Assembly (NCBI GenBank): GCA_021107855.1
Contig: JAIORZ010000002.1
Span: 64,148 to 128,147 of the forward strand
DNA: 64,000 nt
DNA from: an archaeon
GTDB lineage: Archaea; Nanobdellota; Nanobdellia; Pacearchaeales; GW2011-AR1
Reading direction: 5' to 3'
The position numbers and the translations under genes are program-made. Below, piece after piece: positions 1 through 64,000 of the stretch. How positions within the stretch are numbered: position 1 is the first letter of the stretch; the number at the start of each line of letters is the position of its first letter. The notes under the pieces are model-generated. The model was given only the letters and a program-made list of their open reading frames with translations, searched no databases and had not been told where the DNA came from.

Positions 1-1897
1 GATAATCTGAACACGGCTTCCATGGGTCTCCGTTACACTTCTCACAATCGGCACCACCAGCAGGAGGAGTCCACGGACTACAAGTGAAATAGACATATTT
101 TTCTTTTACATCTTTGAACACATACCACCCAATAGGGTCTAAAATTGCTGCAAGAGTTTTACCTATACCAAGCTCGAGAAAAAGTGAATATGATGTCGCC
201 CGCATAAGATAATCACCCCACCCCGATGCCGCATCAGGATTTGCCATACCCGTATCCTCCCACCTATCCTTATCTGCTCCTTGTAGCACATTCAAATACG
301 TCCCAGTTCCCCCCAAAGAATAATTATCCGGACTAATATAGTCCCCCTCAACAACTGTCGTTTTCGATTTATATGCAGCAATCAAAGCAGCAGAAAGAGT
401 CTTAATTGGAAGACTCCTCTTATAGCCTCCAGTGACACTAAATCCCCCATCACTCCACCCCTCCTCAATATTCACATACGAACCACAATCCCCAAGACTC
501 CTACAAAAATCATGCATCTGGTCAGTAAAAGTCTGCTCTGCACAATCACAATTCTGAACACATTCCCACTTAAGTTTATGATTTTTTTTGAAAAGCATAA
601 GACAATCCTGACTAGCTATATCACAAGTAGTACTCGCAGCAGCCGCCGCTTCCGTATCATTCCAGTCAAACCCAGGCGGATACTCCGGCACACACACATC
701 AAATTCAAAGTAATCAACATCAACTTCCAATTCAAAACAATCACGAACACTATCACAACTCTCCCCACTACTCCCCGTATTCAAAGCAAGACACGCCGCC
801 CAACTATTATCAATACAAAGAGAACTTTTAAAACTCACATTAGTCCCATTCACCTCATAATTATTTGTTTGCACACATATCTCCCTCCTCGAATCCGCAC
901 AAGGCTCAACCAACACAGTCCCCTGCGAACAGACATATCTCCAATGCCTCGACCCAACAATATCATAACCATCCCCAATAGTCCCATCATAAACACACCA
1001 AGACTCTCCATTCTCATAACTTTCTCCTTCAAACACACACGCCGTATCCCGACAATAAAAATCCCCAATATCAACATTAAAATTATCCTCACTAGCAGAG
1101 GCACAAATTCCACCATCAAACCGATTACAATTCCCACAACTTGCACTATTAGCGTTCCCATTTGCATCACCATCCCCACAAATCTCTCCAGTCCCCACAA
1201 TAATCCTATTCCAATAACTCGCATCATCAACCCTCCCCGCATCATAAATATTCGCAATATTCCCACACGAATCAACAAAATAAACCCCATCTTTTCCGTC
1301 CACACACTGCGTCTGCCTCGTCATATTGCAACTCGTATTAAGCTCAAAAGAAGTGCAAAGATAGTCCTCAGCAAAATCTCCACCATAAGAATAGCAATCA
1401 GCCTCACTAGTAAATTTACAAGCCCCACCCTCCAAAACACAAGCTCCTTCCTTTTGCACACCAGCCAAAAGCAAACACTCCACCAAATTAAGGTCTCCTC
1501 TCCAATCAACATCCATTCCAGCCGCCAAACTATCTACCTCGCACTGCCCTACTGTCTCAAAAATACTAGTATCCCCCAAAACACAACACCCGAGATTAGC
1601 TCCAATCAAATTACAATACGGGTCATTGATCCAATCCATCGAACAACTTCCCTGTAAAACATTCTTATCATATATCCCACTAGAATCATCATAACAACAA
1701 CCCCTCTCACAAGAGGCGGTCTGATTACATTCCACTCCCTCGGCAAAAAGCGAGCCCTCAGCACAACCATCAATATCCGAAATCACACAATTATCCCCAT
1801 TAACACTCAAAAAACAACATCCCTCCCCAACACCCAACGCCAACACAAACGAAGCCATTAACACAAACCCAATCACTATTCCTATTTTTTTATTCAT
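1..1897 (-). CDS. Large Cys-rich secreted surface protein, paralogue of 2681..6349 (N-terminal ~632 aa; C-terminus beyond window start)
   Basis: The frame is open on the - strand from ATG 1897..1895 (MNKKIGIVIGFVLMASFVLALG, signal-like) to the window edge. It is missing from the ORF track only because no stop lies in the window. Hand translation of 1..540 gives ...FCRSLGDCGSYVNIEEGW...GGADCEKCNGDPWKPCSDY, collinear with CRGLGDCGGSVNIVGEY...GGADCEKCNDDPLKPCSEY of 2681..6349. Antisense track ORFs 512..1657 and 4946..5704 are near-identical over long runs, which confirms nucleotide-level paralogy. Confidence 0.8.
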   Translation of the reverse strand, partial: MNKKIGIVIGFVLMASFVLALGVGEGCCFLSVNGDNCVISDIDGCAEGSLFAEGVECNQTASCERGCCYDDSSGIYDKNVLQGSCSMDWINDPYCNLIGANLGCCVLGDTSIFETVGQCEVDSLAAGMDVDWRGDLNLVECLLLAGVQKEGACVLEGGACKFTSEADCYSYGGDFAEDYLCTSFELNTSCNMTRQTQCVDGKDGVYFVDSCGNIANIYDAGRVDDASYWNRIIVGTGEICGDGDANGNANSASCGNCNRFDGGICASASEDNFNVDIGDFYCRDTACVFEGESYENGESWCVYDGTIGDGYDIVGSRHWRYVCSQGTVLVEPCADSRREICVQTNNYEVNGTNVSFKSSLCIDNSWAACLALNTGSSGESCDSVRDCFELEVDVDYFEFDVCVPEYPPGFDWNDTEAAAAASTTCDIASQDCLMLFKKNHKLKWECVQNCDCAEQTFTDQMHDFCRSLGDCGSYVNIEEGWSDGGFSVTGGYKRSLPIKTLSAALIAAYKSKTTVVEGDYISPDNYSLGGTGTYLNVLQGADKDRWEDTGMANPDAASGWGDYLMRATSYSLFLELGIGKTLAAILDPIGWYVFKDVKEKYVYFTCSPWTPPAGGADCEKCNGDPWKPCSDY

Positions 1898-1899
1898 GT

Positions 1900-2643
1900 C
1901 TACCATTCAAACGCACAACTCCTCACAGCAAATTTAAACTCGCTTCCACTTCTACGGTCAATCACACTATAAATCTTACTATAATCATAATCGGCTCGCT
2001 GAATTTCATACTCAGGATAAACAAACGAATAAGTATCATAATTAAAATGGCAATATTCAGTTTCCCCATTCACAATCTCCCTCACCACCCTAACCAAATC
2101 ATAAATCGGCGACATAATCTCAACCCCGAAATCTTCAAAACTCCTCGTCCCTGTCTCTCCCGAAAGCTCAACACTCTTCTTCAAATTAACCGCAACATGC
2201 CCAGGCAATAAATCAACAGAATAACTCATCGCGCCCTCATCAACATCAAAACCCTCATCCTCAAAACTCTCCCTCATCTTATCAAAACAATCCCCTAACT
2301 CATCTTCTATATCCTCCTCTATCTCTCTCTCAATCTGTAACTCCAACAACGGATGGATATTATAACAAGGATAATAAGACTCATTAATATAACACAAATA
2401 ATTCCACTCTTCCCCTTTGTACAAAATTGTCTTCGACGCCTCTATCTCGCCACCATTCAACAATATCTTATCAATCGACTCCTCCACAGCCTCACGAACA
2501 CAAACCTTAACAAATTCTTGCGGGCTCAAATCACTAGGACTCAAAAATCCACCTTCCCCTTCCGTCAGAAAGAAAAATCCCAAAACAGAAGCAACAAGTA
2601 GAATACCCACTATAATAAAAATCGTCACCTGCCCTCTTTTCAT
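1900..2643 (-). CDS. Pilin-like protein with candidate class III (prepilin-type) signal peptide; paralogue of 6353..7123
   Basis: Track ORF 1900..2865 is trimmed to the internal ATG 2643..2641 (MKRGQVTIFIIVGILLVASVLGFFFL) because the longer version overlaps the end of 2681..6349. KRG-Q followed by ~20 hydrophobic residues resembles archaeal prepilin signals. The rest aligns with 6353..7123 (ILYKGEEWNYLCYI / ILYEGEEWNYLCYQ; FKFAVRSCAF / FRFAVRSCAF). Confidence 0.7.
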   Translation of the reverse strand: MKRGQVTIFIIVGILLVASVLGFFFLTEGEGGFLSPSDLSPQEFVKVCVREAVEESIDKILLNGGEIEASKTILYKGEEWNYLCYINESYYPCYNIHPLLELQIEREIEEDIEDELGDCFDKMRESFEDEGFDVDEGAMSYSVDLLPGHVAVNLKKSVELSGETGTRSFEDFGVEIMSPIYDLVRVVREIVNGETEYCHFNYDTYSFVYPEYEIQRADYDYSKIYSVIDRRSGSEFKFAVRSCAFEW

Positions 2644-2680
2644 CTTAATACCAACATTTTCATATTTATAAATCCCATCA

Positions 2681-5600
2681 TTATGTCGCCACCAGCTCGA
2701 CCAAGCATCCACTCGGCACATTTCCATGAACATCTTTACATCGAATAAAATATTTCTTTCCCTTAACAACCCCAAATTCAAATTCCTTACCCTCCCCAAT
2801 CGAAACACCCTCATCCCAAACAAACTTACATCCGTCAAGCGAATATTTACACTCCGCTCCCTCATTCAAAATCAAATTCACAAAACTTTGGTCCTGCCAA
2901 ATACGACTAACCTGAGGAATCGAGCTATCATGAATAATTTCAAACTCAGTAACACCCCTAGCAAAATCCCCAGTCTCATCCTCGCACTCAACAAAAATCT
3001 CATTCCTTCCGGCTGGACGATTAAAAATCTGCGTATGCATTCTATTTCCTCCCGTCTCAAACAACTCAATCATATTCTCATAACCCGAAAACGAATACGA
3101 ACAAAAATGCTCTTCTCCTCCACCAGAAGTCGCAATCCTCAATTCAACCGTCGTCATATCAGTACTCGTCTGAAAATCAGTCCCCGGCTCAACACTATCA
3201 ATCACAATCACACTCTCCGGCCTCCGAACCTCATAAACAAAACTCCTCAGATTAAAATTACGCTCACTATCATTCAACCACGGCTGGTCCCCACATCTAA
3301 TATAATAAGTATAATTCTGCCTCTGCTCCCCCAACAACAAAGTACTATTACAAACATAACCTAAAACATCCGACGGAGCACCGAAAGAATCCCCACAATA
3401 CATCTCATTCTCCATCTCCGAATGTATAATATCTCTCTCACTCCACCAACAAGTCGCCAACTCATTTGTCACAATCTCCAACTCAACCTCTCCAACAACA
3501 ACCCCAACCAACTCATCATTCTTAGGCGTCGTCTTAACAACCCTTGGCGCACTAATATCCTCACCCTCATTCACACACATCTCAATCTCATAAAATCCAT
3601 CATTCAATATTCCATAAACATCCTGACACCTCACAAACAAACTCAAATCCCCAGTCCAATTATAACCCTGACTCTGCCCGTGACTCGGATCCGGCAAACT
3701 AAAAACCGTCGTATGGTTTATCAGATAAGCATTTCCCCCCAAATCCTGACCCAAACTCTCAAAATCCGTCGCCTCAAAATCAAACTTACAATGCGCCAAC
3801 TCACTCGTCACGACACCAAACATCAAAGGAGTATAAGCATCAATACAGCCTCCCCCACTAGGATTCAAACTAAACCCAGAACTACTGACATCATCATAAA
3901 TAATCCCATCCGAAATCACATCATACTGCGGACTAAGCACAGGCGCCTTCCCATCATCCTCCATAGCACCACACAACTCATTATCAGTCCCAACATTCAT
4001 CAATTCACATGCCGCCCCCAAACTCTCGCACCGGTATTCCGAGCACGGCTTCAGCGGGTCATCATTACACTTCTCACAATCAGCTCCCCCAACAGGCGCC
4101 TCCCATGCCTTACATTCAAACTCAATCTCAATATCATCACAATCACCTGCCCCAAAAAGACTACCAAGAATCATTAATATTACACCTATTATAATTATAG
4201 CCCATCCAACTGGTCCTATCGAAGCAAGACCAGCCCCCAATCCATACCATCCAACAACCGCCCCAATCAAAGCTCCCCCAACTGCCATCAACATGGTCCC
4301 ACCCGGACTCAATTCTAAATAATTCGCCAACATAGTCCCTACAAGCATTCCAATAGAAGCACCCATAGCAGCACCACCAAAAGCACTCAGCCCGGGACTA
4401 CTTCCCAAAAGACCTCCTTCAATAACAGTCATCCCCAAAACCGAACCAGACGTAAGAAAGCTTATCGCCATCGAAACCCCACTCAAACCACTCGCAAAAT
4501 CTTGCATCTTATCCCCAGTATCATCAGCACTCGCATTCAATGACGTCGATGGTCCCCAAATCCCAGCCGCTTCCAAAAACACCGAATAATTTTCAACTTC
4601 CGCAAACTGCCCCGGAACAGGTTTCGCCAAATCTTTCAACTTATCAACCCAACTAGAAGAAAGAAAGAGACTACTATCCGTTACGCCATCCTTAGTAACA
4701 TCATAATTTTCACTATACTCCCCCACAATATTAACCGACCCACCACAATCCCCAAGTCCCCTACAAAAATCATTCATCTCCTCCGCAAAAACACTAGTCA
4801 AACAATCCTCATTCGCAACATATTCACACCCTCTTCCCCATTTCTCACCCTCTCTCACAACCGTGCATGTTTGAGTCCCCATCCCACAAAGTTTCGACGC
4901 CGTAGTCATAGACCTCTCCTCACTTAAACTAAATCCCGCCGGATATTGTGGCAAACAAATATCAAACTCAAAGTAATCCGCAACATCAACCGTCTCAATC
5001 CTACAATTCAACGCACTCTCACAAGCCGTCGTTCCATCTTCCTCGCTATTCAAATTAATACACTCTCTCCAATTATTTGCCACACACGCAGAATCCCGAA
5101 AAGGAACACTCTTTCCATTAACATCAAACTCATCAGCCTGAATACAAATCTGATTTCTATAATCCGCACAAGGCTCAACCACCACAACTCCCTGCGAACA
5201 GACATATCTCCAGTGCCTCGACCCTACAACATCATTCCCTTCCCCAATTGCCCCATCATAAACACACCAAGACTCCCCATTCCTATAGCTCTCTCCCTTA
5301 AAAAGACACGAAGTATCCCTACAATAAAAATCCCCAATATCAACATTAAAATTATCCTCATCAGCCGAACTACAAATACTCCCCGCAAATCGATTACAAT
5401 TTCCACATTCTTCGGAATTCGCATTCCCACCGTCTATATCTCTACTCCCACAAAGGTCTTCCAACTCAGCGACCCTATCCCAATAATCCACATCATCAAC
5501 TTTCCACACATTATAAATATTCGCAGGGTTCCCACAAGAATCAACAAAATAAACCCCATCTTTCCCATCCACACATTGCGTCTGCCTCGTCATCTCACAA

Positions 5601-6349
5601 CTCGTATTAAGCTCAGGAGAGGTGCAAAGATAATCTTCAAAAAAATCTCCACCATAATTATGACAACTCTCCCCTGTCACAAACTTACAAGCTCCACCCT
5701 CTAAAACACAAGCCCCTTCCTTTTGCTCCGTCGCTAAAAGAAAACACCCTGCCTCATTTACATCCTTCCTCCAATCCACACCACCACTATCCCCAAGCGC
5801 CAAAACAAAACTATCAACCTGACACTGCCCCTCGGTCTCATAACTGGTTTCTGCTCCTAAAATACAACAACCCAGAGCGGCACCAGGCAGATTACAATTC
5901 GGATCCTTAACCCACTCCGTCAAACAATCAACCGACAGAACATTCCTATCATAAATCCCAGATGCTTCATCATAACAACATCCCTTCCGACAAAACGCAG
6001 TATCCTTACAAAGCAATCCCTCGGCAAAAGGAGAATCCGCAACACAATTATCAGGAGCGGACGTGCCACACCTTTGCTCATCTTTAGAAATAAAACAACA
6101 ACCAAATCCCTCAGCGAGTGAAGAAATCTCATAAGTTGTCCGCGTCTCATTCCTAAACAAATGACTTCTCTGTGTCCTATTCCACCACTCCTCAAAACTA
6201 AACTCCTCTTCCTCTTCCGCCGAGACCAATGAGAAAACCACATCACTTAAACCAATAAAATAACAAAACGCAAAAAGCGAAACCATCATCAGCATCATCT
6301 CTACACCAGCCACAACCTTTCTACTCCTCACCTTCTTTTTTGTTTCCAT
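2681..6349 (-). CDS. Giant (1222 aa) Cys-rich membrane-integrated surface protein, family not recognised
   Basis: The ORF has an N-terminal hydrophobic anchor (VVAGVEMMLMMVSLFAFCYFIGL). About 600 aa of very Cys-rich sequence follow (GCCYD, GCCILG, CGNCNRF). Four Gly-rich hydrophobic helices lie at nt ~4147..4493. Four ~90-110 aa modules then follow, each bracketed by conserved Cys (A.CK[FY] ... Y.[IV]RC.D..GN). Confidence 0.85.
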   Translation of the reverse strand: METKKKVRSRKVVAGVEMMLMMVSLFAFCYFIGLSDVVFSLVSAEEEEEFSFEEWWNRTQRSHLFRNETRTTYEISSLAEGFGCCFISKDEQRCGTSAPDNCVADSPFAEGLLCKDTAFCRKGCCYDEASGIYDRNVLSVDCLTEWVKDPNCNLPGAALGCCILGAETSYETEGQCQVDSFVLALGDSGGVDWRKDVNEAGCFLLATEQKEGACVLEGGACKFVTGESCHNYGGDFFEDYLCTSPELNTSCEMTRQTQCVDGKDGVYFVDSCGNPANIYNVWKVDDVDYWDRVAELEDLCGSRDIDGGNANSEECGNCNRFAGSICSSADEDNFNVDIGDFYCRDTSCLFKGESYRNGESWCVYDGAIGEGNDVVGSRHWRYVCSQGVVVVEPCADYRNQICIQADEFDVNGKSVPFRDSACVANNWRECINLNSEEDGTTACESALNCRIETVDVADYFEFDICLPQYPAGFSLSEERSMTTASKLCGMGTQTCTVVREGEKWGRGCEYVANEDCLTSVFAEEMNDFCRGLGDCGGSVNIVGEYSENYDVTKDGVTDSSLFLSSSWVDKLKDLAKPVPGQFAEVENYSVFLEAAGIWGPSTSLNASADDTGDKMQDFASGLSGVSMAISFLTSGSVLGMTVIEGGLLGSSPGLSAFGGAAMGASIGMLVGTMLANYLELSPGGTMLMAVGGALIGAVVGWYGLGAGLASIGPVGWAIIIIGVILMILGSLFGAGDCDDIEIEFECKAWEAPVGGADCEKCNDDPLKPCSEYRCESLGAACELMNVGTDNELCGAMEDDGKAPVLSPQYDVISDGIIYDDVSSSGFSLNPSGGGCIDAYTPLMFGVVTSELAHCKFDFEATDFESLGQDLGGNAYLINHTTVFSLPDPSHGQSQGYNWTGDLSLFVRCQDVYGILNDGFYEIEMCVNEGEDISAPRVVKTTPKNDELVGVVVGEVELEIVTNELATCWWSERDIIHSEMENEMYCGDSFGAPSDVLGYVCNSTLLLGEQRQNYTYYIRCGDQPWLNDSERNFNLRSFVYEVRRPESVIVIDSVEPGTDFQTSTDMTTVELRIATSGGGEEHFCSYSFSGYENMIELFETGGNRMHTQIFNRPAGRNEIFVECEDETGDFARGVTEFEIIHDSSIPQVSRIWQDQSFVNLILNEGAECKYSLDGCKFVWDEGVSIGEGKEFEFGVVKGKKYFIRCKDVHGNVPSGCLVELVAT

Positions 6350-6352
6350 ATT

Positions 6353-7123
6353 TTAAATCCCCGGCGCGAACGCACAACTCCTCACAGCAAACCGAAACTC
6401 GTCTCCACTCCTCCTATCAATCAACCGATAAATCTTACTGCCCGAATAATCAATTCTTCTAATATCATACCTAGGATACAAAAGCATATACCCATTATAC
6501 TCAAAATTACAAAACTGCGACTCACTGTTCACAACATCCCGAGCCACACTAACCAAATCATAAATCGGCGACACAACTTCAATCCCAAAATCCTTAGAAC
6601 TCTGAGTCCCCATATCCCCAGAAATATCAACCTGCCTCGACAAATCAACCTTAACATACCCAGGCAACAAATCAACAGAAAAACTCATCACACCAATCTC
6701 AACATCAAAACCCTCATCCCTAAAACTCTCCCTCATCCTATCAAAACAACTCTCTACCCCACCCGATATATCCTCCTTAATCTCGCTCTCAATTCTCAAT
6801 TCCAACATCGGATGAATATTATAACATCCCTGATAAAAATCCGCCTGATAACACAAATAATTCCACTCTTCCCCCTCATACAAAATGGCCTGCGATGGCA
6901 CCGCCTCACCACCATTCCTCATCATCTTATCAACCGAATCCTTAACCAAATCAGAAACACATCCCCTAACAATAGTCCGCGGGTCCAAATTATCAGCCCT
7001 ATCAACACCAGTCTCTCCCAAAAGCAAAAACGACAAAAGAATCATAGCTACAATCACGATACTAACCATGAAAAAAATCGCCACCTGTCCTTTTGTTCCA
7101 ACACCCATTTTTTTATTTACCAT
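6353..7123 (-). CDS. Pilin-like protein with candidate class III signal peptide (256 aa)
   Basis: The N-terminus MVNKKMGVGTKGQVAIFFMVSIVIVAMILLSFLLL has a KG-Q motif plus a hydrophobic helix. It is a paralogue of 1900..2643. Its ATG shares one nucleotide with the stop of 7123..7824 (TAATG), which suggests translational coupling. Confidence 0.75.
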   Translation of the reverse strand: MVNKKMGVGTKGQVAIFFMVSIVIVAMILLSFLLLGETGVDRADNLDPRTIVRGCVSDLVKDSVDKMMRNGGEAVPSQAILYEGEEWNYLCYQADFYQGCYNIHPMLELRIESEIKEDISGGVESCFDRMRESFRDEGFDVEIGVMSFSVDLLPGYVKVDLSRQVDISGDMGTQSSKDFGIEVVSPIYDLVSVARDVVNSESQFCNFEYNGYMLLYPRYDIRRIDYSGSKIYRLIDRRSGDEFRFAVRSCAFAPGI

Positions 7124-7824
7124 TAATCGATTTCCACGTATAAATAATATACTACATTACCTCCAATACTTTCATTCCCATAATCTGGCACAATCATCTG
7201 AAAATCATAAATACCACCATCATAACCACCAACATCATCTTCAATCTCCGTAGCAAAAACAATATCAGTATCATCAAACAAAACAATTTCTTCAAAACTA
7301 GAATTCTGAGTAACATTATCAACATATGCATTTGAAGCAAAACAATCCCCAACGCCAACAGAAAAACTAGCGATAACATAAGTTTCAATATTTGTCCCGG
7401 AAAAAGTGGACGAGATATTATCACCTCCAGAATGTTGTAAGGCACTATCCTCACTATTAATCTGACTAGTATTAGCACAGCCAATATTCCCCCACTCAAT
7501 AGACCCAGAGCCACGAGTAGCGTAAACTTCCCCGCCAGTAGTGGAAGATGACCAATCATAAACCGTAGAACCCGTAGAATCATCCAAAGTAAATTTCCCA
7601 TTAACCCAACCAACAAAACCCTTCCAACGAGAATTCTGTGAAATCGAAGAGATATTCATTTTAGCAACATAAGCACCAGAAATATTGACCATCCAAGGAT
7701 TAGCAGCCCCAGCCCCAGTCTCGTTATACGTTATATTCAAAGAGCTAGGTCCGGTCGGAAGTCCAGCAACAATACCCAAAAATCCAACCAAAAAAATCAA
7801 AACAAATCCTATTTTAACATCCAT
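7123..7824 (-). CDS. Secreted/anchored protein rich in N-x-S/T sequons (233 aa), hypothetical
   Basis: The N-terminal signal or anchor is MDVKIGFVLIFLVGFLGIVAG. The protein carries about 10 N-glycosylation sequons. It is packed tightly between the wHTH gene and the pilin-like gene. Confidence 0.7.
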   Translation of the reverse strand: MDVKIGFVLIFLVGFLGIVAGLPTGPSSLNITYNETGAGAANPWMVNISGAYVAKMNISSISQNSRWKGFVGWVNGKFTLDDSTGSTVYDWSSSTTGGEVYATRGSGSIEWGNIGCANTSQINSEDSALQHSGGDNISSTFSGTNIETYVIASFSVGVGDCFASNAYVDNVTQNSSFEEIVLFDDTDIVFATEIEDDVGGYDGGIYDFQMIVPDYGNESIGGNVVYYLYVEID

Positions 7825-7994
7825 AAGTTCACCCCCGCTTTTTTAATTCTATCAACTTCCCCATCCAAAGCCAATTCCATCAGATGTTTCTCCGCAGTAT
7901 TCCAAGAAACACTAAACTTCTCCGCCACCTCGCTACTTGTCACAATTCTCTCTTTCTTAATCAAAGCAATAATCTTTTTACTATGTATCTTCAT
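7809..7994 (-). CDS. Small winged-helix/HTH DNA-binding protein (61 aa)
   Basis: Track ORF 7809..8096 is trimmed to ATG 7994..7992. The product MKIHSKKIIALIKKERIVTSSEVAEKFSVSWNTAEKHLMELALDGEVDRIKK... has a wHTH-like pattern. It overlaps the next gene by 16 nt. Confidence 0.55.
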   Translation of the reverse strand: MKIHSKKIIALIKKERIVTSSEVAEKFSVSWNTAEKHLMELALDGEVDRIKKAGVNLWMLK

Positions 7995-8110
7995 AATAAT
8001 ACACCTACTAATATACACACTAATACTCGCGCCAATACACTCATCAATATACCTATGAATATTCATATATAAATGTTCGCAAAATAAAAACTTCAAACTA
8101 TATACATCAA

Positions 8111-11858: not shown

Positions 11859-11866
11859 ATTAAACA

Positions 11867-54755: not shown

Positions 54756-54801
54756 AAATATCAAACTAAAAAAGTCTTTATAATAATTATTGTGATAAAT
54801 T

Positions 54802-55761: not shown

Positions 55762-55821
55762 AATAAATATCCATTTATAAAATTACCTATTATAACTACT
55801 ACATAATGACATTAAAATTGA

Positions 55822-57105: not shown

Positions 57106-57153
57106 AAACCATATTTAAAACTTCCTCCATTTTATATGTTCTCAGTAACAGCA

Positions 57154-57165
57154 ATATTTATAAAG
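57154..57165 (+). promoter_or_regulatory. TATA box for 57186..57976 operon
   Basis: atatttataaag ends 21 nt before ATG 57186. Confidence 0.4.
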
Positions 57166-57185
57166 AAGAATACATTACAAAAAAT

Positions 57186-57392
57186 ATGCAAAATAAAAAG
57201 AGAGTGACAGTCCTCGTAACAATAGCTTTAATTCTAGCCATAACTGCAATCGCTCTAAATTCTATAGACTCCGAAATTTCAACCACAAGAACTCAAACCC
57301 AAGACCACGCAGGTGGCGGACAAATCGGAATAGACATTCAGCCCCCCCAAGTAGAAGATAAATTATTAGAAGAAGAAATCCCACAACAATGA
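57186..57392 (+). CDS. Small membrane-anchored protein (68 aa), hypothetical
   Basis: The N-terminal TM helix reads VTVLVTIALILAITAIAL. The ORF overlaps the next gene by 4 nt. Confidence 0.45.
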   Translation: MQNKKRVTVLVTIALILAITAIALNSIDSEISTTRTQTQDHAGGGQIGIDIQPPQVEDKLLEEEIPQQ

Positions 57393-57976
57393 AATACGAC
57401 ACACTAGAAATCACAAGCTACGCTTCAATAGCGGTAATCGCAATATCATTATTCTTTATCGGAACAGAATTAACAGGAATGGCAACAACAAATGATACAG
57501 GTGATGTCAACGTAACGATTACAGATTCGGCTGGAATAAATTTCACAACAGATTTATTAGATTTCGGGTCAGGAGCAGTAACACCAGGACAGACAGCAGT
57601 ACTAGAGAGTAATGGAACAGGGACAAACCTATCCTGGAGCGGAGCTAAAGTAACAGGCGAACTAGTTCTAGAAAATATAGGAAACAATAATGTAAGTATA
57701 ATGCTACAGACAGATAAATCCGCACAAGAGTTTATCGGAGGATCATCAGGCGCAACATTTGAGGCAATGGTAAGTAATGATAGTGAGCCGCTCTCATGTG
57801 TAGGAACAAATACATTCACAACTTTCGCCCCTATCAACACCACTCCCCAATTAGCATGTGGCTCATTCAACTTTTCGGATGCAGCGGACGAACTAATAAT
57901 CGACTTCAGAATAAACATCCCAGATGATGCAACTGGGGCAAAGACAATCGAGATTAAAGCGATAGGCACATATTAA
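57389..57976 (+). CDS. Secreted beta-rich protein (195 aa), hypothetical
   Basis: The N-terminal anchor reads YASIAVIAISLFFIGTEL. The mature part is Thr/Asn-rich with sequons. Confidence 0.6.
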   Translation: MKYDTLEITSYASIAVIAISLFFIGTELTGMATTNDTGDVNVTITDSAGINFTTDLLDFGSGAVTPGQTAVLESNGTGTNLSWSGAKVTGELVLENIGNNNVSIMLQTDKSAQEFIGGSSGATFEAMVSNDSEPLSCVGTNTFTTFAPINTTPQLACGSFNFSDAADELIIDFRINIPDDATGAKTIEIKAIGTY

Positions 57977-58035
57977 CTCTTCAAAAAATTAAAATACTCC
58001 TAAATTTTGTTATATATACAATCTCTATCAAAACC

Positions 58036-58043
58036 CTTATATA
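58036..58043 (+). promoter_or_regulatory. TATA box for GGDEF gene
   Basis: cttatata ends 23 nt before ATG 58066. Confidence 0.4.
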
Positions 58044-58065
58044 ACAATAAAACGTTAAAACAAAA

Positions 58066-58767
58066 ATGGAAAAGAAATTATCCAATTTAATAGAAAAACT
58101 ATCAACTGGCAAACTAACTTTCAAAACCGTCATCAAAGAAGTCAGTTCATGGGATGATCCACATAAAGAAGTCGAAGCATATTTTGCTCTCATAGATTCC
58201 ACCTGTAAAGATAGAGACATCGAAACTTTATCAAAGATGAACAAAGAAGCATACAACAAAGTATTAATTCTCGAGGACATGGACACACTAACTAGACTAC
58301 CAAAAAGAAAAACTTTTGAAAAAATCTTCAAAAGAGAATATTCTAGATTTGAAAGAAGTGGCGACCCATTTAGTATCGTAATAATAGATTTAGACTATTT
58401 CAAAAAAGTCAACGACACCTACGGGCATCTGGCAGGAGACGCCGTCCTAGAAAAATTTGCAAAAAACATAAGAACTTGGATACGAAAAATTGATTTCGCC
58501 TGTCGTTATGGAGGCGAAGAATTTGCCCTAATTTATTCAAGTATTTCCGGAGAAAACGCCGTAGGGGCAATCGATAATTTGATAAAAAGAGTTTCTAAAT
58601 CTAAAATTAATATTGGGAAAGGAAAAAAAATAAAAATTACTTTCAGCGCTGGGGTCTATGAAATAAAAGAAAAAGATTCATTAAACGACGCTTTTGAAAG
58701 AGCCGATAAAGCATTATACAAAGCAAAAGAAAACGGAAGAAAACAATCCGCCTTATACAAGGACTAA
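58066..58767 (+). CDS. GGDEF-domain diguanylate cyclase (stand-alone, 233 aa)
   Basis: Motifs DTLTRLPKRKTF, IIDLDYFKKVNDTYGHLAGDAVL, RYGGEEF (intact active site) and RADKALYKAKENGRKQ are present. RKID lies 5 residues upstream of GGEEF, which is an RxxD I-site. Confidence 0.85.
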   Translation: MEKKLSNLIEKLSTGKLTFKTVIKEVSSWDDPHKEVEAYFALIDSTCKDRDIETLSKMNKEAYNKVLILEDMDTLTRLPKRKTFEKIFKREYSRFERSGDPFSIVIIDLDYFKKVNDTYGHLAGDAVLEKFAKNIRTWIRKIDFACRYGGEEFALIYSSISGENAVGAIDNLIKRVSKSKINIGKGKKIKITFSAGVYEIKEKDSLNDAFERADKALYKAKENGRKQSALYKD

Positions 58768-58806
58768 TTTTTATCATCTCAATCTAGACAGAAATTTTTA
58801 TAAAGG

Positions 58807-58826
58807 ATAGTTAACGATAGTTAACA
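58807..58826 (+). promoter_or_regulatory. Tandem 10-nt direct repeat (gatagttaac x2) between TATA box and iscS start; candidate operator
   Basis: The repeat gatagttaacgatagttaac is perfect. The TATA box ttttataaa lies at 58796..58804 and the ATG at 58839. Confidence 0.4.
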
Positions 58827-58838
58827 TATTCATTAAAA

Positions 58839-60002
58839 ATGGAAGAAATTTATTTAGATAATGCTGCCACCACAAAAGTTGATGATGCTGTAGCAAAGAA
58901 AGTTAAAGAAGTTTTTTTAGAGAGCTATGGGAATGCGTCGTCACTACATACAAAAGGAAGAGAGTCCAGAGAAAAAATGGAATCAGCCAAAAAAAAAATT
59001 GCCACATATCTTAATTGCAACCCTAAAGAAATTATTTTTACAAGTGGAGGAACCGAATCAAATAACCTAGCAATCCGAGGACTAGCCAAAGCAAACCCAG
59101 AAAAAAAACACATCATAACCTCTGTAATCGAACATCCATGTATTCTAGAAACCTGTCAAGACTTAAAGCGAGAAGGCTATGAAGTTGATTACATCAAAGT
59201 CAATAATGATGGGCTCATAGAAGTTGAGGATATTTCTAAAAAAATTAAAGACAACACATTATTAGTCTCAATAATGCACGTTAATAATGAAATCGGGACC
59301 ATACAACCAATCGAAAAAATTAGCCAAATTTGTAAAAAACAAAATGTATACTTCCACACAGATAACGTGCAAGGATTTTTGAAAAAAGATTTGCCATTAA
59401 CTTCAATTGACATGATGTCAGTTTCCGGACATAAATTTTGCGCCCCAAAAGGCGTTGGATTTTTGTATGTAAAAAAAGGAATAAAAATTTTACCAATTAA
59501 CACCGGAGGAGGACAAGAAAACGGATTAAGAAGCGGAACAGAAAACGTTCCCGGAATTGTAGGGCTGGCTGCAGCTTTAGACATCGACTTTAAAATTAAC
59601 GAAATAGAAACTAGCCGAGATAAAATCATCGAAGGTTTAAAAAAAATCAAAGGAGTAAAAATCAATGGGTCTATAAAAAATCGTATCTACAACAACATCA
59701 ACATATCATTTTATGGAATTGAGGGCGAAAGCTTAATGCTGATGTTAGACGAACAAGGAATTTATGTTTCAACCGGCTCCGCTTGCGCATCAACAAAATT
59801 AAACGAGAGCCATGTCTTGAAAGCTTTAAGCATAGATGAAATGTATATCCACGGAAGTCTAAGATTATCACTCGGAACTGACGCAATCGGAAAAGAAAAT
59901 TTCATCATTGAAAAAATAACTAATGCCGTTAAAAAACTGAGAGAGATGAGCCCATTTAAATTAAATTTGGAGGAAGAAAATGACAAAGAAAAAAATAACT
60001 AA
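58839..60002 (+). CDS. iscS: Cysteine desulfurase (NifS/IscS class)
   Basis: Motifs NASSLHTKGRE, FTSGGTESNN, the SVSGHKF PLP-lysine motif and GSACAS (the catalytic Cys loop) are present. Confidence 0.9.
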   Translation: MEEIYLDNAATTKVDDAVAKKVKEVFLESYGNASSLHTKGRESREKMESAKKKIATYLNCNPKEIIFTSGGTESNNLAIRGLAKANPEKKHIITSVIEHPCILETCQDLKREGYEVDYIKVNNDGLIEVEDISKKIKDNTLLVSIMHVNNEIGTIQPIEKISQICKKQNVYFHTDNVQGFLKKDLPLTSIDMMSVSGHKFCAPKGVGFLYVKKGIKILPINTGGGQENGLRSGTENVPGIVGLAAALDIDFKINEIETSRDKIIEGLKKIKGVKINGSIKNRIYNNINISFYGIEGESLMLMLDEQGIYVSTGSACASTKLNESHVLKALSIDEMYIHGSLRLSLGTDAIGKENFIIEKITNAVKKLREMSPFKLNLEEENDKEKNN

Positions 60003-60180
60003 AGATATGACTTTTGCAGAAATTATGAAGTTAGACAAAAATGTCGCTGAAAAATTAGCCGATAAGGGATTATTTTGCGGCGGATGCCCAATGGCACAGT
60101 TTGAAAAATTAGAAGATGGAGCGAAAGCACATGGAGTTGATGCAGATAAATTAGTGAAGGAGTTAAACAAGAATGAATAA
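59980..60180 (+). CDS. DUF1858 / hybrid-cluster-protein-associated redox disulfide domain protein
   Basis: The 66-aa product reads MTFAEIMKLDKNVAEKLADKGLFCGGCPMAQFEKLEDGAKAHGVD. Confidence 0.65.
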   Translation: MTKKKITKDMTFAEIMKLDKNVAEKLADKGLFCGGCPMAQFEKLEDGAKAHGVDADKLVKELNKNE

Positions 60181-60598
60181 TGTTGATTATAATGCAAATA
60201 TCTTAGACCATTTCAAAAATCCACGAAACATGGGAGAACTAAAAAATGCCGACGCCGAAGCAACAGTCGGAAATCCAAGCTGTGGAGACGTTATGAAAAT
60301 AATGATTAAAGTTTCTAATAATAAAATTGAGAATATTAAGTTTCAAACGATGGGTTGTGCTGCTGCAATTGCCACGAGCTCCATGGCAACAGAACTAGCG
60401 AAAAGAAAAACATTAGATGAGGCTGAAAAGATTACAAATAAAGACGTATCATTAGCTCTAGGCAAACTGCCACCAATAAAAGAACATTGTTCAAATTTAG
60501 CCGCAGATGCTTTAAAAAAAGCAATTGCAAATTACAAAAAAAACTATAATGAATCTCCCAAGCTCCCTAACAAAGGAGATTCATTGAATATGATTTAA
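60173..60598 (+). CDS. iscU: Fe-S cluster scaffold, NifU N-terminal/IscU-like
   Basis: The three cluster-ligand Cys occur in NPSCGDVM, FQTMGCAAAIATSS and HCSNLAADALKKAI. Confidence 0.85.
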   Translation: MNNVDYNANILDHFKNPRNMGELKNADAEATVGNPSCGDVMKIMIKVSNNKIENIKFQTMGCAAAIATSSMATELAKRKTLDEAEKITNKDVSLALGKLPPIKEHCSNLAADALKKAIANYKKNYNESPKLPNKGDSLNMI

Positions 60599-60626
60599 TA
60601 AAAAATAAAAAATTTAAATTGAAGAT

Positions 60627-60821
60627 TTACTTCTTCTTTTTCTTCTTGACTACTTTTTTCTTAACTGGCTTCTTCTTAGCAACTTTCTTCTTCACTGCTT
60701 TCTTCTTCTTCTTCTTTCCACCTCGAGCCATTTTAGCCTCGCAAACGTTACCCTTTCCGTCTACATAATATAGAAATCCAGATTTTCGCTCAACAACGCC
60801 TTTTGCAATAATTTTTCCCAT
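60627..60821 (-). CDS. Small basic protein with poly-Lys tail (64 aa)
   Basis: The product reads MGKIIAKGVVERKSGFLYYVDGKGNVCEAKMARGG, followed by 30 residues that are mostly Lys. Confidence 0.55.
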   Translation of the reverse strand: MGKIIAKGVVERKSGFLYYVDGKGNVCEAKMARGGKKKKKKAVKKKVAKKKPVKKKVVKKKKKK

Positions 60822-60880
60822 TTTTTTTAACCTCCTTTTTGCCTTTTAATAGTTCTACTTTTCTAGAGTGGATTTTATAT

Positions 60881-61210
60881 TTAAATGTTTCTATTCCCAA
60901 CAACAGATTTTACCGACGAGAGGGGAACTTCCAAAAGGTATCTCCCACGACCAGATATATTAAGTTTCCATGTTTTAACGTCGGTAACTTTCGTTGAGTG
61001 AAATTTGTCGTCGAGCCAGACCGCACGAAATGGTTTACAGAAAAAAGAATGTATTGAAAGAGTCTTATTTTTATTGAAAATAAAAAGCAAAGGCGAAGAA
61101 TTTTTTTGAAACATTAACCCCATAAATTTTTTAAAAAGAGTATCACAGACTTTCACCTTAATCATTCTCTTTTCCCCGTCGACATAATAACTAATTTTCT
61201 TTAAAGCCAT
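60881..61210 (-). CDS. DUF192 (COG1430) family protein
   Basis: The pattern CDTLFKKFMGLMFQKN...LLFIF...FFCKPFRAVWLD...RYLLEVP fits DUF192. Confidence 0.55.
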   Translation of the reverse strand: MALKKISYYVDGEKRMIKVKVCDTLFKKFMGLMFQKNSSPLLFIFNKNKTLSIHSFFCKPFRAVWLDDKFHSTKVTDVKTWKLNISGRGRYLLEVPLSSVKSVVGNRNI

Positions 61211-61581
61211 TCAATTTTATAATCTTCCTTTTTTAATTTACAATATCTTTTGTAAACCTCCTTAACAGATTTGTCATGGACTTTATTATGATGAATAAAA
61301 CCACCCCCAAAAGCTTTCGGTATGTGCATAAGCTCATGAATCAAAACCTTAGTTTGCTCTTCCCTTGAAAGTTTGTCAAATTTTTCAGATATAACCTCCA
61401 CCAAATAAAACCCCTTTTTCCTCCCCATCCCAATCTGCATAGCCTTCCCAAGAGCATGACATCTAGCGACGGTGTATCGAGCCTTAGACCCAGTACTCCT
61501 AAGAAAAGCGACGTGCTCCAAAGGGACATGAACCCAGCCCAATTTCTTAATTATCTCTTCTGCCCTTTCCTTAATGTCCAA
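61201..61581 (-). CDS. Small HExxH zinc-metallopeptidase-like protein (126 aa)
   Basis: The HELMHIP motif is present, and the size and layout match small archaeal predicted metallopeptidases. Confidence 0.5.
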   Translation of the reverse strand: MDIKERAEEIIKKLGWVHVPLEHVAFLRSTGSKARYTVARCHALGKAMQIGMGRKKGFYLVEVISEKFDKLSREEQTKVLIHELMHIPKAFGGGFIHHNKVHDKSVKEVYKRYCKLKKEDYKIEWL

Positions 61582-61598
61582 AGCCTGATGATATTTTA

Positions 61599-62015
61599 TT
61601 ACAATGATTCTACCTCAATTGTTTTTCCCATAACGATAATTACAACAAGGGCGATAAGACTTCCGACATCCACCACCATACAATATGGACAAAAGGCCTT
61701 TATGACGAAAGCCTGAAGGTAGATAAAATATAGAGAAGCCAAAGCAGATGCCGTTACCCCAAGAGCTAACGAAAGTTTCTTCTGCCGTCTTGGTTTTCGC
61801 ATATGAGATATCGTTAGGAAAATTAAAATCGCGAAAGCTACAAGCCCGAAATAACTATTACTTACACCAAGAGTTTCTTTATATTGAGAATTTTGAACAA
61901 TCGAACAGCTAGAACCTTCATCCCCACAAATTTTTTCAGTAGGAATAAAAGTTAAGATAGCCGAAGCAGCGAGACAGACAGCGAATATAACTAAAAGGAT
62001 TTTATATTTCATCAT
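61599..62015 (-). CDS. Vitamin K epoxide reductase (VKOR)-family disulfide oxidoreductase
   Basis: The protein has four hydrophobic helices, a loop Cys pair (CGDEGSSC) and a membrane CxxC (AFCPYCMV). Confidence 0.65.
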   Translation of the reverse strand: MMKYKILLVIFAVCLAASAILTFIPTEKICGDEGSSCSIVQNSQYKETLGVSNSYFGLVAFAILIFLTISHMRKPRRQKKLSLALGVTASALASLYFIYLQAFVIKAFCPYCMVVDVGSLIALVVIIVMGKTIEVESL

Positions 62016-62100
62016 CTTGTTGGGCTAACAACATATTAAAAGGTTATGGCAAAACTAGTTTCATTAAAAATTTCAAAAAATAAAAATAAAATTTTCTGCT

Positions 62101-62523
62101 TTATCTATTAAACTTAGCAAAAATCAACCCAGCAACAAGCCCATTAAAGAAACTCATCTCAGCCCAAGTCCCGACCATGGAAAGAGGAAGATTAAAACTA
62201 CTAGCATTAATAAAAAACGCAGGAATTGCAGCAACAACAAAATAAGCCCAGCCAAACTTCAACCCAGCCCAAAACGTCGCGTCCTCCTTTAGCAAATTTT
62301 TAGTTTTATCCCAAATCCAACTCAAACCAATTCCAATTGCCAAAGGATAAACCCAAAACATCATCATCAACGGGTCATCAAATGATCTAAAAATAGCAGT
62401 ATTCGCATAAATCTCAGCAAAACTCGGAAAAATCCAGCCATAAACAACATTCAACAACAGATTCACAACAATCATTACAACACCTGCCAAAACACCAATC
62501 CACAAAATCTTTTTCATATACAC
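62101..62523 (-). CDS. Four-helix membrane protein (140 aa), hypothetical
   Basis: This is a hydrophobic ORF with no recognised motif. Confidence 0.55.
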   Translation of the reverse strand: MYMKKILWIGVLAGVVMIVVNLLLNVVYGWIFPSFAEIYANTAIFRSFDDPLMMMFWVYPLAIGIGLSWIWDKTKNLLKEDATFWAGLKFGWAYFVVAAIPAFFINASSFNLPLSMVGTWAEMSFFNGLVAGLIFAKFNR

Positions 62524-62554
62524 CTCCTTACAATAAACCAGACATAGAAACTAT

Positions 62555-63049
62555 TTAATTCTTTTTAAAATTTGACAAATCACTAAAAGAATCCCAAGCA
62601 ATACCAAAAATAACAATAACCATAAATCCTATTACAGCTAAACCTAATAAATCATAAGCATTGACTACCCCGTCACTAAATTGCTTAAAATAAATAAATG
62701 CCTGAATAGTTGCTGCTAAAGCTAAAACAACCGTAGCCTTTGTAATTGCTCCATTCCTTTTTTCTTCCGCATCTAAACTTTTCATTCTTGATAAAAAATC
62801 TATCCCCTCTGGCGTTATCGTAATTTCATCCCATGAAATCAGCTTTTCTCTTCCCGTAGAAGCTATTCTTGTTTCTGGGAAGTGAACAATAATCTTATTA
62901 GTTGCCCTGAGATATTTAACAACCTTAAAAAATTCCCCATCGAGAGAAGGAAGTTTTAATCTCTTTCTTAATTTCTCTACATTATAATGCGAAGGATAAG
63001 CTTCTTCTAAAAATCCCAAAAAGGTTATCATCAATTTTGTCTTCATCAA
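62555..63049 (-). CDS. Hypothetical protein with C-terminal TM helices (164 aa)
   Basis: The ORF overlaps the thermosome stop by 4 nt. It has two C-terminal hydrophobic helices. Confidence 0.55.
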   Translation of the reverse strand: MMKTKLMITFLGFLEEAYPSHYNVEKLRKRLKLPSLDGEFFKVVKYLRATNKIIVHFPETRIASTGREKLISWDEITITPEGIDFLSRMKSLDAEEKRNGAITKATVVLALAATIQAFIYFKQFSDGVVNAYDLLGLAVIGFMVIVIFGIAWDSFSDLSNFKKN

Positions 63050-64000
63050 TCATACCCACTCATTCCCCCAACCTTCCCACCCCGCCCTTCCGACTTCCTC
63101 GCCGCAATAACATCATCAATCCTCAAAATCATAATCGCAACTTCCGTAGCACTCGCAATCGCCTGCGTCTTCACCCTCAATGGCTCAATCACCCCGTTCA
63201 CCAAATTATCCTCAATCCCACCATTAAACAAGTTCAACCCCATATCCTTATTCCCAGAATCATGCACAGCTCGAAGCTCCGTCAAAACATCAATCGGGTC
63301 CATGCCAGCGTTCTCAGCCAAAGTCGTCGGAACAAACTCCAAAGCAGACGCAAACTCCTCGACAGCCAACCTCTCACGCCCAGTCAAACCCTTAGCAAAC
63401 TCACGCAATCTCCGAGACAACTCAATCTCAACCGCCCCACCCCCAGCCACAATCTTCGAATCCTTCAAAGCAGCCGCAACATCTCCCAAAGCATCCTCAA
63501 CAGCCCGCTCAACCTCATCAACAACATGCTCAGTCCCACCTCTAATCAAAATCGTAATCGCCTTCGGATTCGAACAACCCATAACATAAGTCATCCCATC
63601 CTCACCGTCCTTCCGCTCCTCAACCAAATCAGCATTTCCCAAATCCTCCCTAGAAATCTCACTCAACTTAGAAACAATCCGCCCACCAGTCGCCTTCGCC
63701 AAATTCTGCATATCACTCCGAGGCACCCGACGAACCGCATAAATTCCCTCACGAGCCAAATGATGCTGCACCAACTCATCCACTCCCTTCTGAACAAAAA
63801 CAACATTCGCACCACTCCCCTTAATCAACTCAACCTTCTCTCTCAAAACAGAATCCTCCTGTCCCAAAAAACTCGTCAACTGCTCAGGCGTCGAAACCGA
63901 AATTCGCGCATCCATCTCCGGCGACCGAACCTCCAAGGCCTCCTCAATCAAAGCAACCCGAGCCCCCTCAACCTTCGCAGGCATATCCAGATTAATCCTT
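63046..64000 (-). CDS. ths: Thermosome / group II chaperonin subunit (C-terminal part; 5' end beyond window)
   Basis: Motifs VAGGGAVEIELSRRLREFA and IEPLRVKTQAIASATEVAIMILRIDDVIA are present, with a GGMSGYD tail. The frame stays open to position 64000 (upstream codons ...RINLD before the track Met). Confidence 0.9.
   Translation of the reverse strand, partial: RINLDMPAKVEGARVALIEEALEVRSPEMDARISVSTPEQLTSFLGQEDSVLREKVELIKGSGANVVFVQKGVDELVQHHLAREGIYAVRRVPRSDMQNLAKATGGRIVSKLSEISREDLGNADLVEERKDGEDGMTYVMGCSNPKAITILIRGGTEHVVDEVERAVEDALGDVAAALKDSKIVAGGGAVEIELSRRLREFAKGLTGRERLAVEEFASALEFVPTTLAENAGMDPIDVLTELRAVHDSGNKDMGLNLFNGGIEDNLVNGVIEPLRVKTQAIASATEVAIMILRIDDVIAARKSEGRGGKVGGMSGYD

Follow-up and report, generated by a model that had tools for sequence, protein, structure and literature searches.

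The + strand of a 64,000-nt stretch of archaeal DNA (positions 64,148 to 128,147 of the forward strand of contig JAIORZ010000002.1, assembly GCA_021107855.1; this whole stretch is "the window" in what follows) is poor in G and rich in A and C whichever strand is coding. The strand asymmetry is real, and it defines a single clade of related genomes. Probably it reflects a strand-specific pressure toward transition mutations that is linked to DNA replication, exerted on a chromosome into which two unskewed islands were acquired recently. Judged by its genes, the window is chromosomal DNA of a Pacearchaeota-like DPANN archaeon. Those homologues of its lysine-tRNA ligase (LysRS) that are named carry the labels Pacearchaeota, Woesearchaeota or Nanoarchaeota; Pfam and NCBIfam matches include PCNA, the primase small subunit PriS, LysRS, glycine-tRNA ligase (GlyRS), RuBisCO, a thermosome subunit, a SPOUT methyltransferase, an exosortase-family protein and very large secreted proteins, while tRNA and Rfam scans of the window returned no match.

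Composition of the two strands

The window contains 23212 A, 16870 C, 16299 T and 7619 G (38.3% GC): its GC skew is -0.378 (z = 59 for C vs G) and its AT skew +0.175 (z = 35 for A vs T). Outside both islands the + strand is 36% A, 29.5% C, 10.7% G and 23.8% T (GC skew -0.47, AT skew +0.20), GC content is 0.40-0.45, and every 1,000 nt of this skewed core carries an excess of 188 C and 122 A. The core - strand is 65.7% G+T with its purines near parity, so that the main axis of the asymmetry is keto/amino and not purine/pyrimidine. Measured in 2-kb windows, GC skew ranges from -0.3 to -0.64 and comes near zero at ~25-35 kb and ~57-62 kb; all 1-kb windows in which G equals or exceeds C lie within the islands. 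The sign of the skew is constant across 75.6 kb of skewed DNA (the window, with 3.6 kb to its left and 8 kb to its right on neighbouring contigs). No gradient of per-gene skew at third codon positions (GC3 and AT3 skew, for the two base pairs) is visible along the 64 kb, in which GC3 skew is near saturation and which make up a small part of the genome.

The initial annotation of this DNA had described a + strand that is G-poor and A/C-rich regardless of which strand codes, broken by unskewed islands and free of sign changes in its skewed segments. The asymmetry turns out to be stronger than was stated there; windowed skew locates two islands, and the constancy of sign extends over the entire 75.6 kb. 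Four of the five 60-nt lines that had been counted by hand are exact, the fifth (26521-26580) being G14 C10 A22 T14 instead of having G15 and A21. The surmise that a skew of this magnitude exceeds the known archaeal range also holds: published values for excess G per kb are 7-8 in archaea and 23-25 in bacteria (Paravel et al. 2026, PMC12999951), so that the window core, at 188, stands at ~8 times the bacterial and ~25 times the archaeal average.

Could a disparity of this size be an artefact of chimeric assembly, of strand-specific chemical damage or of sequencing bias? The data are derived from metagenomes, and the islands are sharply unlike their flanks. However, identical sequence and identical junctions are found across assemblers and samples (ENA ERZ26872897 NODE_28/75/213, ERZ26872904, Logan SRR15668619/SRR15668621), the trait recurs in relatives from unrelated JGI, ENA and NCBI projects, and neither reading frames nor invariant catalytic residues are disrupted. 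Moreover, damage cannot make both strands of a duplex consistently asymmetric, nor can it pass over islands within a single molecule. The likelihood of an artefact is negligible.

Neutral sites and gene orientation

The decisive question is whether the skew changes sign with the orientation of genes, a check that had been proposed together with the initial annotation. It was approached through third codon positions and four-fold degenerate sites, with all values referenced to the + strand and key genes verified by Pfam or NCBIfam. The sign is the same for genes on both strands: GC3 skew lies between -0.4 and -0.95 in most - strand core genes and between -0.63 and -0.81 in four credible + strand core genes, and for either orientation AT3 skew falls between +0.3 and +0.85. 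The key orientation control is PriS (10202..11785, + strand; PF01896, with TIGR00335 below its family cutoff), whose GC3 skew of -0.74 and AT3 skew of +0.76 match its - strand neighbours in sign. GlyRS (46422..47942, + strand, opposite to LysRS; NF003211, 623 bits against a cutoff of 312) has values of -0.63 and +0.74, and two secreted proteins of 614 and 430 aa (41544..44711, + strand) have GC3 skews of -0.73 and -0.81 and AT3 skews of +0.75 and +0.83. Four-fold sites, 81-92% A+C on the + strand, tell the same story: base frequencies (A, C, G, T) are.516,.293,.047 and.144 for core - strand genes (n=4,727; GC skew -0.72, AT skew +0.56) and.582,.338,.034 and.046 for core + strand genes (n=825; GC skew -0.82, AT skew +0.85). 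Core intergenic DNA (GC skew -0.52, AT skew +0.16) has the polarity of the neutral coding sites. Skew at first codon positions, which follows gene orientation everywhere, tracks it here as well; the neutral positions do not.

These results bear directly on the explanation that is currently favored for archaeal skews, namely bias driven by transcription or gene orientation through coding composition, codon choice or transcription-coupled deamination. Archaeal skews have been characterized as weak and ascribed mainly to gene orientation and first-codon-position effects, and that is the general conclusion of a recent survey (PMC12999951). The window has some features that such an explanation would predict: 39 of its 54 provisional genes (72%) lie on the - strand, in agreement with the earlier estimate that about three quarters of the coding sequences occupy the G/T-rich strand, and the proportion rises to ~39/43 (~90%) in the skewed segments; first-codon-position skew follows orientation; and L179, an unskewed relative (L-numbers designate loci in the comparison described below), displays just such a mild, orientation-dependent GC3 effect. 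Against it, PriS, GlyRS, the two secreted proteins and an eIF2B-like gene in the relative L176 keep their sign at neutral sites when transcribed in the opposite direction, the four-fold skew of the + strand genes is even the stronger, and intergenic DNA shares the polarity. A purely transcriptional or codon-driven origin is refuted because neutral positions ignore gene orientation, and bias of this kind is very improbable as the source of the asymmetry. As main causes, transcription, selection, chimerism and damage are rejected. What sets the window apart from the archaeal skews described so far is a neutral-site skew that is near saturation, independent of orientation, and strongest in its third-position and non-coding components.

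Phylogenetic distribution

The distribution of the trait was followed through 160 loci around LysRS, taken from GTDB species representatives and JGI metagenomes and supplemented by targeted look-ups, with LysRS serving as the phylogenetic anchor. Skewed relatives are L171 (LysRS 93% identical to that of the window), L099 and L172/L173 (82% each), L174/L175 (79%), L084 and L003/L083 (76% each) and L092 (75%). The magnitude of their GC3 skew is 0.66-0.86 in LysRS and, where these genes are seen, 0.43-0.63 in the opposite-strand GlyRS and 0.87-0.93 in RuBisCO, all with the same sign; LysRS is on the G-rich strand in every member of the clade, and the pairing of GlyRS and LysRS on opposite strands with same-sign skew is found again in L171, L172 and L174. 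On a neighbour-joining tree of LysRS, the skewed lineages constitute one clade that is sister to L004, L005 and L006. Along with L179, these lineages (LysRS 72-73% identical to that of the window) are unskewed or have only the ordinary orientation-dependent GC3 effect, and the GC content of the unskewed sisters is 0.31-0.35 vs the 0.40-0.45 of the window core. L180, at 73% identity, has intermediate skew. Thus, the trait defines a monophyletic clade comprising at least seven lineages from independent samples. Its restriction to a clade, like the proposed acquisition of the islands (below), goes beyond what the initial annotation had seen.

Several distant lineages labelled Pacearchaeota or Woesearchaeota, L062, L065 and L041 (LysRS 49-53% identical) and also L019 and L023, have a weaker GC3 skew (0.3-0.64 overall, 0.4-0.6 in the first three) that seems not to depend on gene orientation, and their AT3 skew matches it. 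Strand-biased mutation may therefore be commoner in this order than among those archaea that have been surveyed.

Polarity switches in relatives

The skew of the window does not change sign; that of some relatives does, and the places at which it does so are informative. In L083/L003, GC skew drops from +0.43 to -0.36 as AT skew climbs from -0.25 to +0.3, both flipping together within a 158-bp spacer (L083 18674-18832; L003 ~17.3 kb) that lies between a + strand DEDD-exonuclease-like gene (L083 18120-18674) and a - strand SpoIIM-like gene, i.e., between converging genes, and the proteins encoded on either side have mirror composition. The gene order at this locus is unlike that of both the window and L176. 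In L180 (ERZ27250245 k141_707298) the switch is from C-rich to G-rich, within a 630-bp non-coding spacer (8342-8971) between diverging genes; the left half of this spacer is visibly A/C-rich and its right half G/T-rich. L176, on a 91-kb contig of a close relative, has the gene block of L083/L003 and shows the mirror domain found there to extend over more than 12 kb, across SecY and the ribosomal-protein operon, with a GC skew of -0.5 to -0.57. The lone + strand gene of this domain has neutral sites of the same sign, and 16/19 genes of L176 are on the G/T-rich strand. L180 and the window agree in having PCNA on the G/T-rich strand and primase on the A/C-rich one, despite the differing position of these genes relative to LysRS; rearrangements symmetric about landmarks of replication would be expected to leave such a pattern.

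We propose the L180 spacer as a candidate replication origin and the L083/L003 spacer as a candidate terminus or inversion breakpoint; the identities of these switches as origin and terminus are inferred from the polarity of the skew and of the genes. Inverted motifs resembling GTGGTGAAAAAAG, which is similar to the origin recognition box (ORB), flank the L180 switch: there are 5 matches where 0.85 are expected, but the motif was selected post hoc and overlaps in part with a small called gene, making it a lead only.

The switches also bear on a more radical idea, that these archaea replicate in an unusual mode (unidirectional, rolling-circle or mitochondrion-like strand displacement) that keeps one parental strand single-stranded for long. 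In magnitude, and in its joint GC and AT keto skew, the window is closer to vertebrate mitochondrial DNA than to any bacterial chromosome, its sign is single over 75.6 kb, and the single-sign skew of Microgenomates, bacteria belonging to the Candidate Phyla Radiation (CPR), has been interpreted in this way (PMC7143001). Yet single polarity over a whole replicon is not what is found in L083/L003 and L180: both have domains of opposite polarity, with clean switches at which genes diverge or converge, as they do for bidirectional replichores. The absence of a positional gradient of GC3 and AT3 skew along the window, to the extent that saturation permits the test, and a strong co-orientation of genes that is unlike the CPR case (449 vs 389 genes on the two strands) also count against it. 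We regard an unusual replication mode as distinctly unlikely.

The islands

Island 1 (25250..35400) is a block of glycan biosynthesis genes that were assigned with Pfam (an epimerase, GT2, GT4 and a second GT2 glycosyltransferase, a DUF2206 protein, a deacetylase and one 691-aa - strand gene). Its GC content is 0.28-0.32, its GC skew ~0 to +0.19, and its four-fold sites are nearly balanced (GC skew -0.14 to -0.23, AT skew +0.05 to +0.12). Island 2 (57250..62000; by Pfam, a gene of unknown function, GGDEF, cysteine desulfurase, DUF1858, NifU, small ORFs, a metallopeptidase-like gene and VKOR) has a GC content of 0.33-0.36, a GC skew of -0.12 to +0.04 and an intermediate four-fold skew (-0.40 for GC, +0.50 for AT), so that it looks ameliorated in part. 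The composition of both (GC 0.28-0.36 vs 0.40-0.45 in the core) is atypical of the host. The islands are not chimeric joins, since their junctions with core DNA have been recovered by different assemblers. The island 2 genes have no match beside RuBisCO in L083 and are not among the genes called at that place in L174; for island 1, for which no relative spanning the locus was obtained, the reading as recent transfer follows from composition. The best reading is that both islands are recent acquisitions from unsampled, unskewed donors of low GC content and that island 2 would be the older of the two. Core genes with weak GC3 skew, such as those of a PKD protein (13221-15263) and VKOR (61599-62015), may be younger arrivals as well.

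A glycan island in L176 also combines a low GC content with weaker skew. In other relatives, low-skew patches at the edges of skew domains hold transposase and integrase genes (rve, phage integrase, DDE; L083 856-1440; L179 11838-12656; L180 12781-13605 and 15136-16092), so that mobile DNA can be recognized by being unskewed. The cargo of island 2 at 58066-60598, a bacterial-type GGDEF diguanylate cyclase beside cysteine desulfurase, DUF1858 and NifU, is unusual for a DPANN archaeon.

The mutational signature and its possible cause

The asymmetry is probably tied to replication: it is uniform in long domains, independent of transcription, flips in relatives where genes diverge or converge, and is accompanied by ~90% co-orientation of genes. 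The proposal of a replication-type, orientation-independent mutational asymmetry was already part of the initial annotation; the neutral-site and intergenic skew, the co-orientation, and the origin-like and terminus-like switches of the relatives all support it. What kind of mutation is responsible? Four-fold base ratios in the near-neutral islands are A/G ~4.8 and C/T ~0.3-0.4; in the core they are 11-17 and 2-7. The comparison requires the + strand to favor both G to A and T to C, which correspond to C to T and A to G when read on the - strand. This is the pair of transitions that deamination generates and, equally, the pair of outcomes of G:T mispairing. Whatever the 5' or 3' neighbour, the - strand is short of C and A (odds ratios 0.16-0.45); a motif-specific (APOBEC-like) deaminase was considered and discarded, as this test of neighbour context reveals depletion throughout and no sharp motif. 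A keto/amino main axis is the expected product of deaminating C and A, and the higher GC content of the core relative to the unskewed sisters is in keeping with A to G being in excess on one of the strands. Polymorphism is dominated by the same class of change: co-occurring haplotypes (L164, L165 and L168) differ from the window at 0.2-0.7% of aligned sites, and 75 of the 94 ungapped single-nucleotide variable sites (80%) are transitions, with A/G pairs (44) exceeding C/T pairs (31) though G is only ~13% of the + strand.

The mechanism that we propose starts from a G/T-rich strand that undergoes a strong, strand-specific and largely context-independent excess of two transitions, C to T and A to G. 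Cytosine and adenine would deaminate on the strand that stays single-stranded longer at the replication fork and would be left uncorrected; strand-biased cytosine deamination generates bacterial GC skew, according to Kono 2018 as cited in PMC12999951. The lineage might have lost or weakened the sensing of uracil and hypoxanthine by its replicative polymerases, or the repair of these bases by glycosylases and endonucleases, and slow replication could contribute. Acting on long replichores of single polarity, such a process would make the - strand of the window leading-strand sequence, with one fork crossing from high to low coordinates, and the islands would be too recent to have been remodelled. 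The initial annotation had proposed this direction as well, and had placed neither an origin nor a terminus inside the window. The chances that uncorrected deamination of C and A on the fork-exposed strand is the specific mechanism seem to us a little short of even. A broader conjecture, that the clade either lost its safeguards against deaminated bases or replicates very asymmetrically (with long-lived single-stranded intermediates, or with two polymerases of very different fidelity), is offered tentatively.

The principal competitor puts the asymmetry into the enzymes: if the two strands are copied by different enzymes or modes, e.g., PolB and PolD, the enzyme that copies the + strand template might simply make many more G:T mispairs. 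This predicts the observed pair of transitions and the uniformity of whole domains, and the 80% share of transitions among variable sites fits G:T errors just as well as deamination. Onset of the trait near 73-75% LysRS identity, with the skewed L180 amid unskewed lineages at ~73%, is compatible with a discrete change of the replication machinery. The intermediate skew of L180 suggests, on the other hand, a trait that is graded rather than switch-like, and nothing specific speaks for the polymerases, no polymerase gene of the clade having been seen. We know of no asymmetry of such size for archaeal polymerases. Asymmetric fidelity is, in our estimate, an unlikely explanation, if a better one than an unusual mode of replication.

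Returning to replication-linked transition pressure and recently acquired islands, a number of considerations weigh against this reading or parts of it. Judged from composition alone, deamination is indistinguishable from an asymmetry of polymerase fidelity. The direction of the fork and the designation of the - strand as leading are analogies, drawn from the bacterial rule and the co-orientation of genes. Beside the L180 switch there is neither an Orc1/Cdc6 gene nor a convincing ORB repeat, the enrichment of the ORB-like motif being post hoc, and the switches in both relatives could be inversion breakpoints. The single-nucleotide variants are unpolarised (L164 and L165 carry nearly the same variants, and there are 3 singletons), and the rate ratios assume equilibrium and include selected sites. 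As for the islands, a search for a close donor of island 1 with its DUF2206 protein as query yielded a best foreign homologue that is 42-44% identical, with CPR and Nanobdellota labels; and no tRNA (in the scan of the window) or integrase domain (by Pfam) flanks the islands, flanking repeats not having been searched for.

Consequences for proteins and for gene calling

The pressure on the strands remodels proteins oppositely on the two strands and strips the + strand of G-containing stop codons. Stop triplets number 37.5 per kb on the + strand and 64.3 on the - strand (5.8 vs 34.6 for TGA). The scarcity of + strand stops had been held responsible for long antisense ORFs, and all three that had been singled out do lie opposite real genes: 381 aa (512..1657) opposite a 1079-aa - strand gene that crosses the start of the window (and is called in L167), 416 aa (49543..50793) opposite LysRS, and 454 aa (55843..57207) opposite RuBisCO. 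Real + strand genes fare badly in existing gene calls, which omit PriS and call four small antisense ORFs instead (L167 1757-2824) and shorten GlyRS to 245 aa (L001 13218-13955). In this clade, the A/C-rich strand seems to defeat standard gene finders systematically.

Proteins encoded by the - strand of the window contain more V (9.3 vs 3.0%) and also more G and D, and those encoded by the + strand contain more Q, T, K and P. To that extent the amino acid biases noted initially stand; E, C, W and F, which had been included, barely differ. More telling is the comparison of orthologues, which had been suggested as a check and which was made as net residue gains and losses of window proteins relative to the unskewed L005. 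On the A/C-rich coding strand, PriS has gained Q (+15), I (+10) and T (+8) and lost G (-12), R (-12) and V (-6), and the 614-aa secreted protein has gained I (+10), Q (+10) and K (+8) and lost V (-17) and G (-14). On the G/T-rich coding strand, LysRS has gained V (+20) and G (+5) and lost I (-14) and T (-13), and the SPOUT methyltransferase has gained V (+8), R (+7) and G (+5) and lost K (-9) and I (-7). The shifts are reciprocal, I giving way to V on one strand and V giving way to I on the opposite one. An alignment of LysRS extends the point to the clade as a whole, with Val at 6.3-7.4% in its members vs 2.8-5.8% elsewhere and Thr at 2.4-2.9% vs 3.3-7.1%.

Gene content of the window

Three skewed core segments surround the islands. 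In segment A (1..25250; + strand C>>G and A>T) nearly all genes are on the - strand, among them those for secreted giants and PCNA (9033-9755; Pfam); GC skew is -0.30 to -0.62 in 2-kb windows and per-gene GC3 skew -0.4 to -0.89, with the exception of the PKD protein (-0.11). Segment B (35400..57250) encodes flippase-like, NYN, exosortase-family and Rce1-like proteins, LysRS, the SPOUT methyltransferase and RuBisCO. Its GC skew is -0.31 to -0.64, apart from a single 2-kb window over GlyRS at -0.16, its GC3 skew is -0.58 to -0.95, and it is syntenic with L083, L171, L172 and L174, all of them likewise skewed. The class II LysRS (49615..51159, - strand; NF001756, 621 bits, cutoff 468) has GC3 and AT3 skews of -0.78 and +0.56, and the form III RuBisCO (55822..57105, - strand; TIGR03326, 539 bits, cutoff 497) of -0.87 and +0.73. 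Orthologues of the two secreted proteins of 41544..44711 occur throughout the skew clade and in the unskewed L005. Segment C (62000..64000; GC3 skew -0.65 to -0.90) contains part of a thermosome gene (63046-63984), and the skew persists for 8 kb past the end of the window.

The 506-aa synthetase of segment B was at one stage taken from its Pfam domains to be ProRS-like; the NCBIfam match replaced that assignment with GlyRS. Its place opposite LysRS is kept across the clade; its sequence is only 44-51% identical to the copies in L172 (9002-10402) and L174 (15807-17327), lineages in which the flanking LysRS is 79-82% identical; the L171 GlyRS is 95% identical, and L083 has no GlyRS at the site opposite LysRS. 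This divergence could have arisen by in-situ replacement with a xenologue or by very fast divergence.

Surface proteins are less skewed than housekeeping genes. A repeat of ~870 bp (892-1748 vs 5161-6029, 76.5% nucleotide identity) connects the 1079-aa gene that spans the window start with the gene of a 1222-aa secreted protein (2681-6349), and these giant surface proteins have a paralogous domain in common. At the 3' end of a 1971-aa surface-protein gene (window ~15,390-17,160), the co-occurring haplotypes depart further from the window, with indels and 97.1% identity over 1.8 kb. An exosortase-family (EpsH) protein (37395-38396) and a Rce1-like CAAX protease (40539-41318) are encoded close to giant secreted proteins that bear LTD and PKD domains (16198-22113 and 13221-15263); the combination suggests a sortase-like system for processing surface proteins.

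Known systems and implications

Two kinds of DNA invite comparison. In bacterial replication skew the leading strand is rich in G and T, most strongly in some Firmicutes, Borrelia and endosymbionts. The window resembles it in the orientation independence of its third-position and non-coding skew, in switches (found in its relatives) that are coupled to gene arrangement, in co-orientation of genes with the G-rich strand, and in the conjunction of G>C with T>A; it differs in belonging to the Archaea, with their eukaryote-type replication proteins, and in its far larger magnitude. With the heavy and light strands of animal mitochondrial DNA it has in common a comparable magnitude, a joint GC and AT keto/amino skew, both C to T and A to G implied for a single strand, and measurable effects on proteins' amino acid composition (compare PMC2779903). 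Unlike these 16-kb organelle genomes, it is part of a cellular chromosome of several hundred kb (the source contig alone is 389,723 bp) that encodes PCNA and primase, so that its replication machinery looks to be of the usual archaeal kind, with no gradient detected and with domains of opposite polarity in its relatives.

A third comparison is with order UBA1400 of the CPR Microgenomates (Kadnikov et al. 2020, PMC7143001), in which C is 29.8% and G 15.0%, there is no AT skew, genes are divided 449 vs 389, and one sign prevails chromosome-wide. These are also ultra-small, uncultivated lineages of episymbiont type with a clade-restricted, extreme G/C disparity beyond what gene distribution accounts for; but they are bacterial, and the window adds a strong AT skew, ~90% co-orientation, larger local skew and switches in relatives. 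Among archaea, peaked, bacterial-like cumulative skew that implies a single bidirectional origin has been reported for 18 of 224 RefSeq genomes, all from Euryarchaeota, and for one DPANN genome (PMC12999951; PMC7111523), and Chen et al. 2020 (PMC7111523) describe only normal peaked skew in one DPANN genome. Literature searches that paired GC skew with the names DPANN, Woesearchaeota, Pacearchaeota and Nanoarchaeota turned up no account of the trait. What is described here is a new archaeal variant of replication-associated strand asymmetry that has mitochondrial strength, its closest analogues being CPR Microgenomates and mitochondria.

It also runs directly counter to the general view (PMC12999951) that strand-specific mutational bias is absent from the chromosomes of archaea, and its magnitude was previously known only from organelles. 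If the broader conjecture above (lost safeguards or very asymmetric replication) is right, this would be the most extreme strand asymmetry known for a cellular chromosome. The recent onset of the trait, narrow and datable beside unskewed sisters and one intermediate, would then allow the responsible gene loss or gain to be pinpointed, making the cause of replication skew addressable by comparative genomics. The sharp switches offer a cheap locator of origins and termini in uncultivated DPANN archaea, and the amelioration of skew an internal clock for dating horizontally acquired DNA. At the same time, the opposite pushes on protein composition from the two strands will distort phylogenies and homology searches for the clade.

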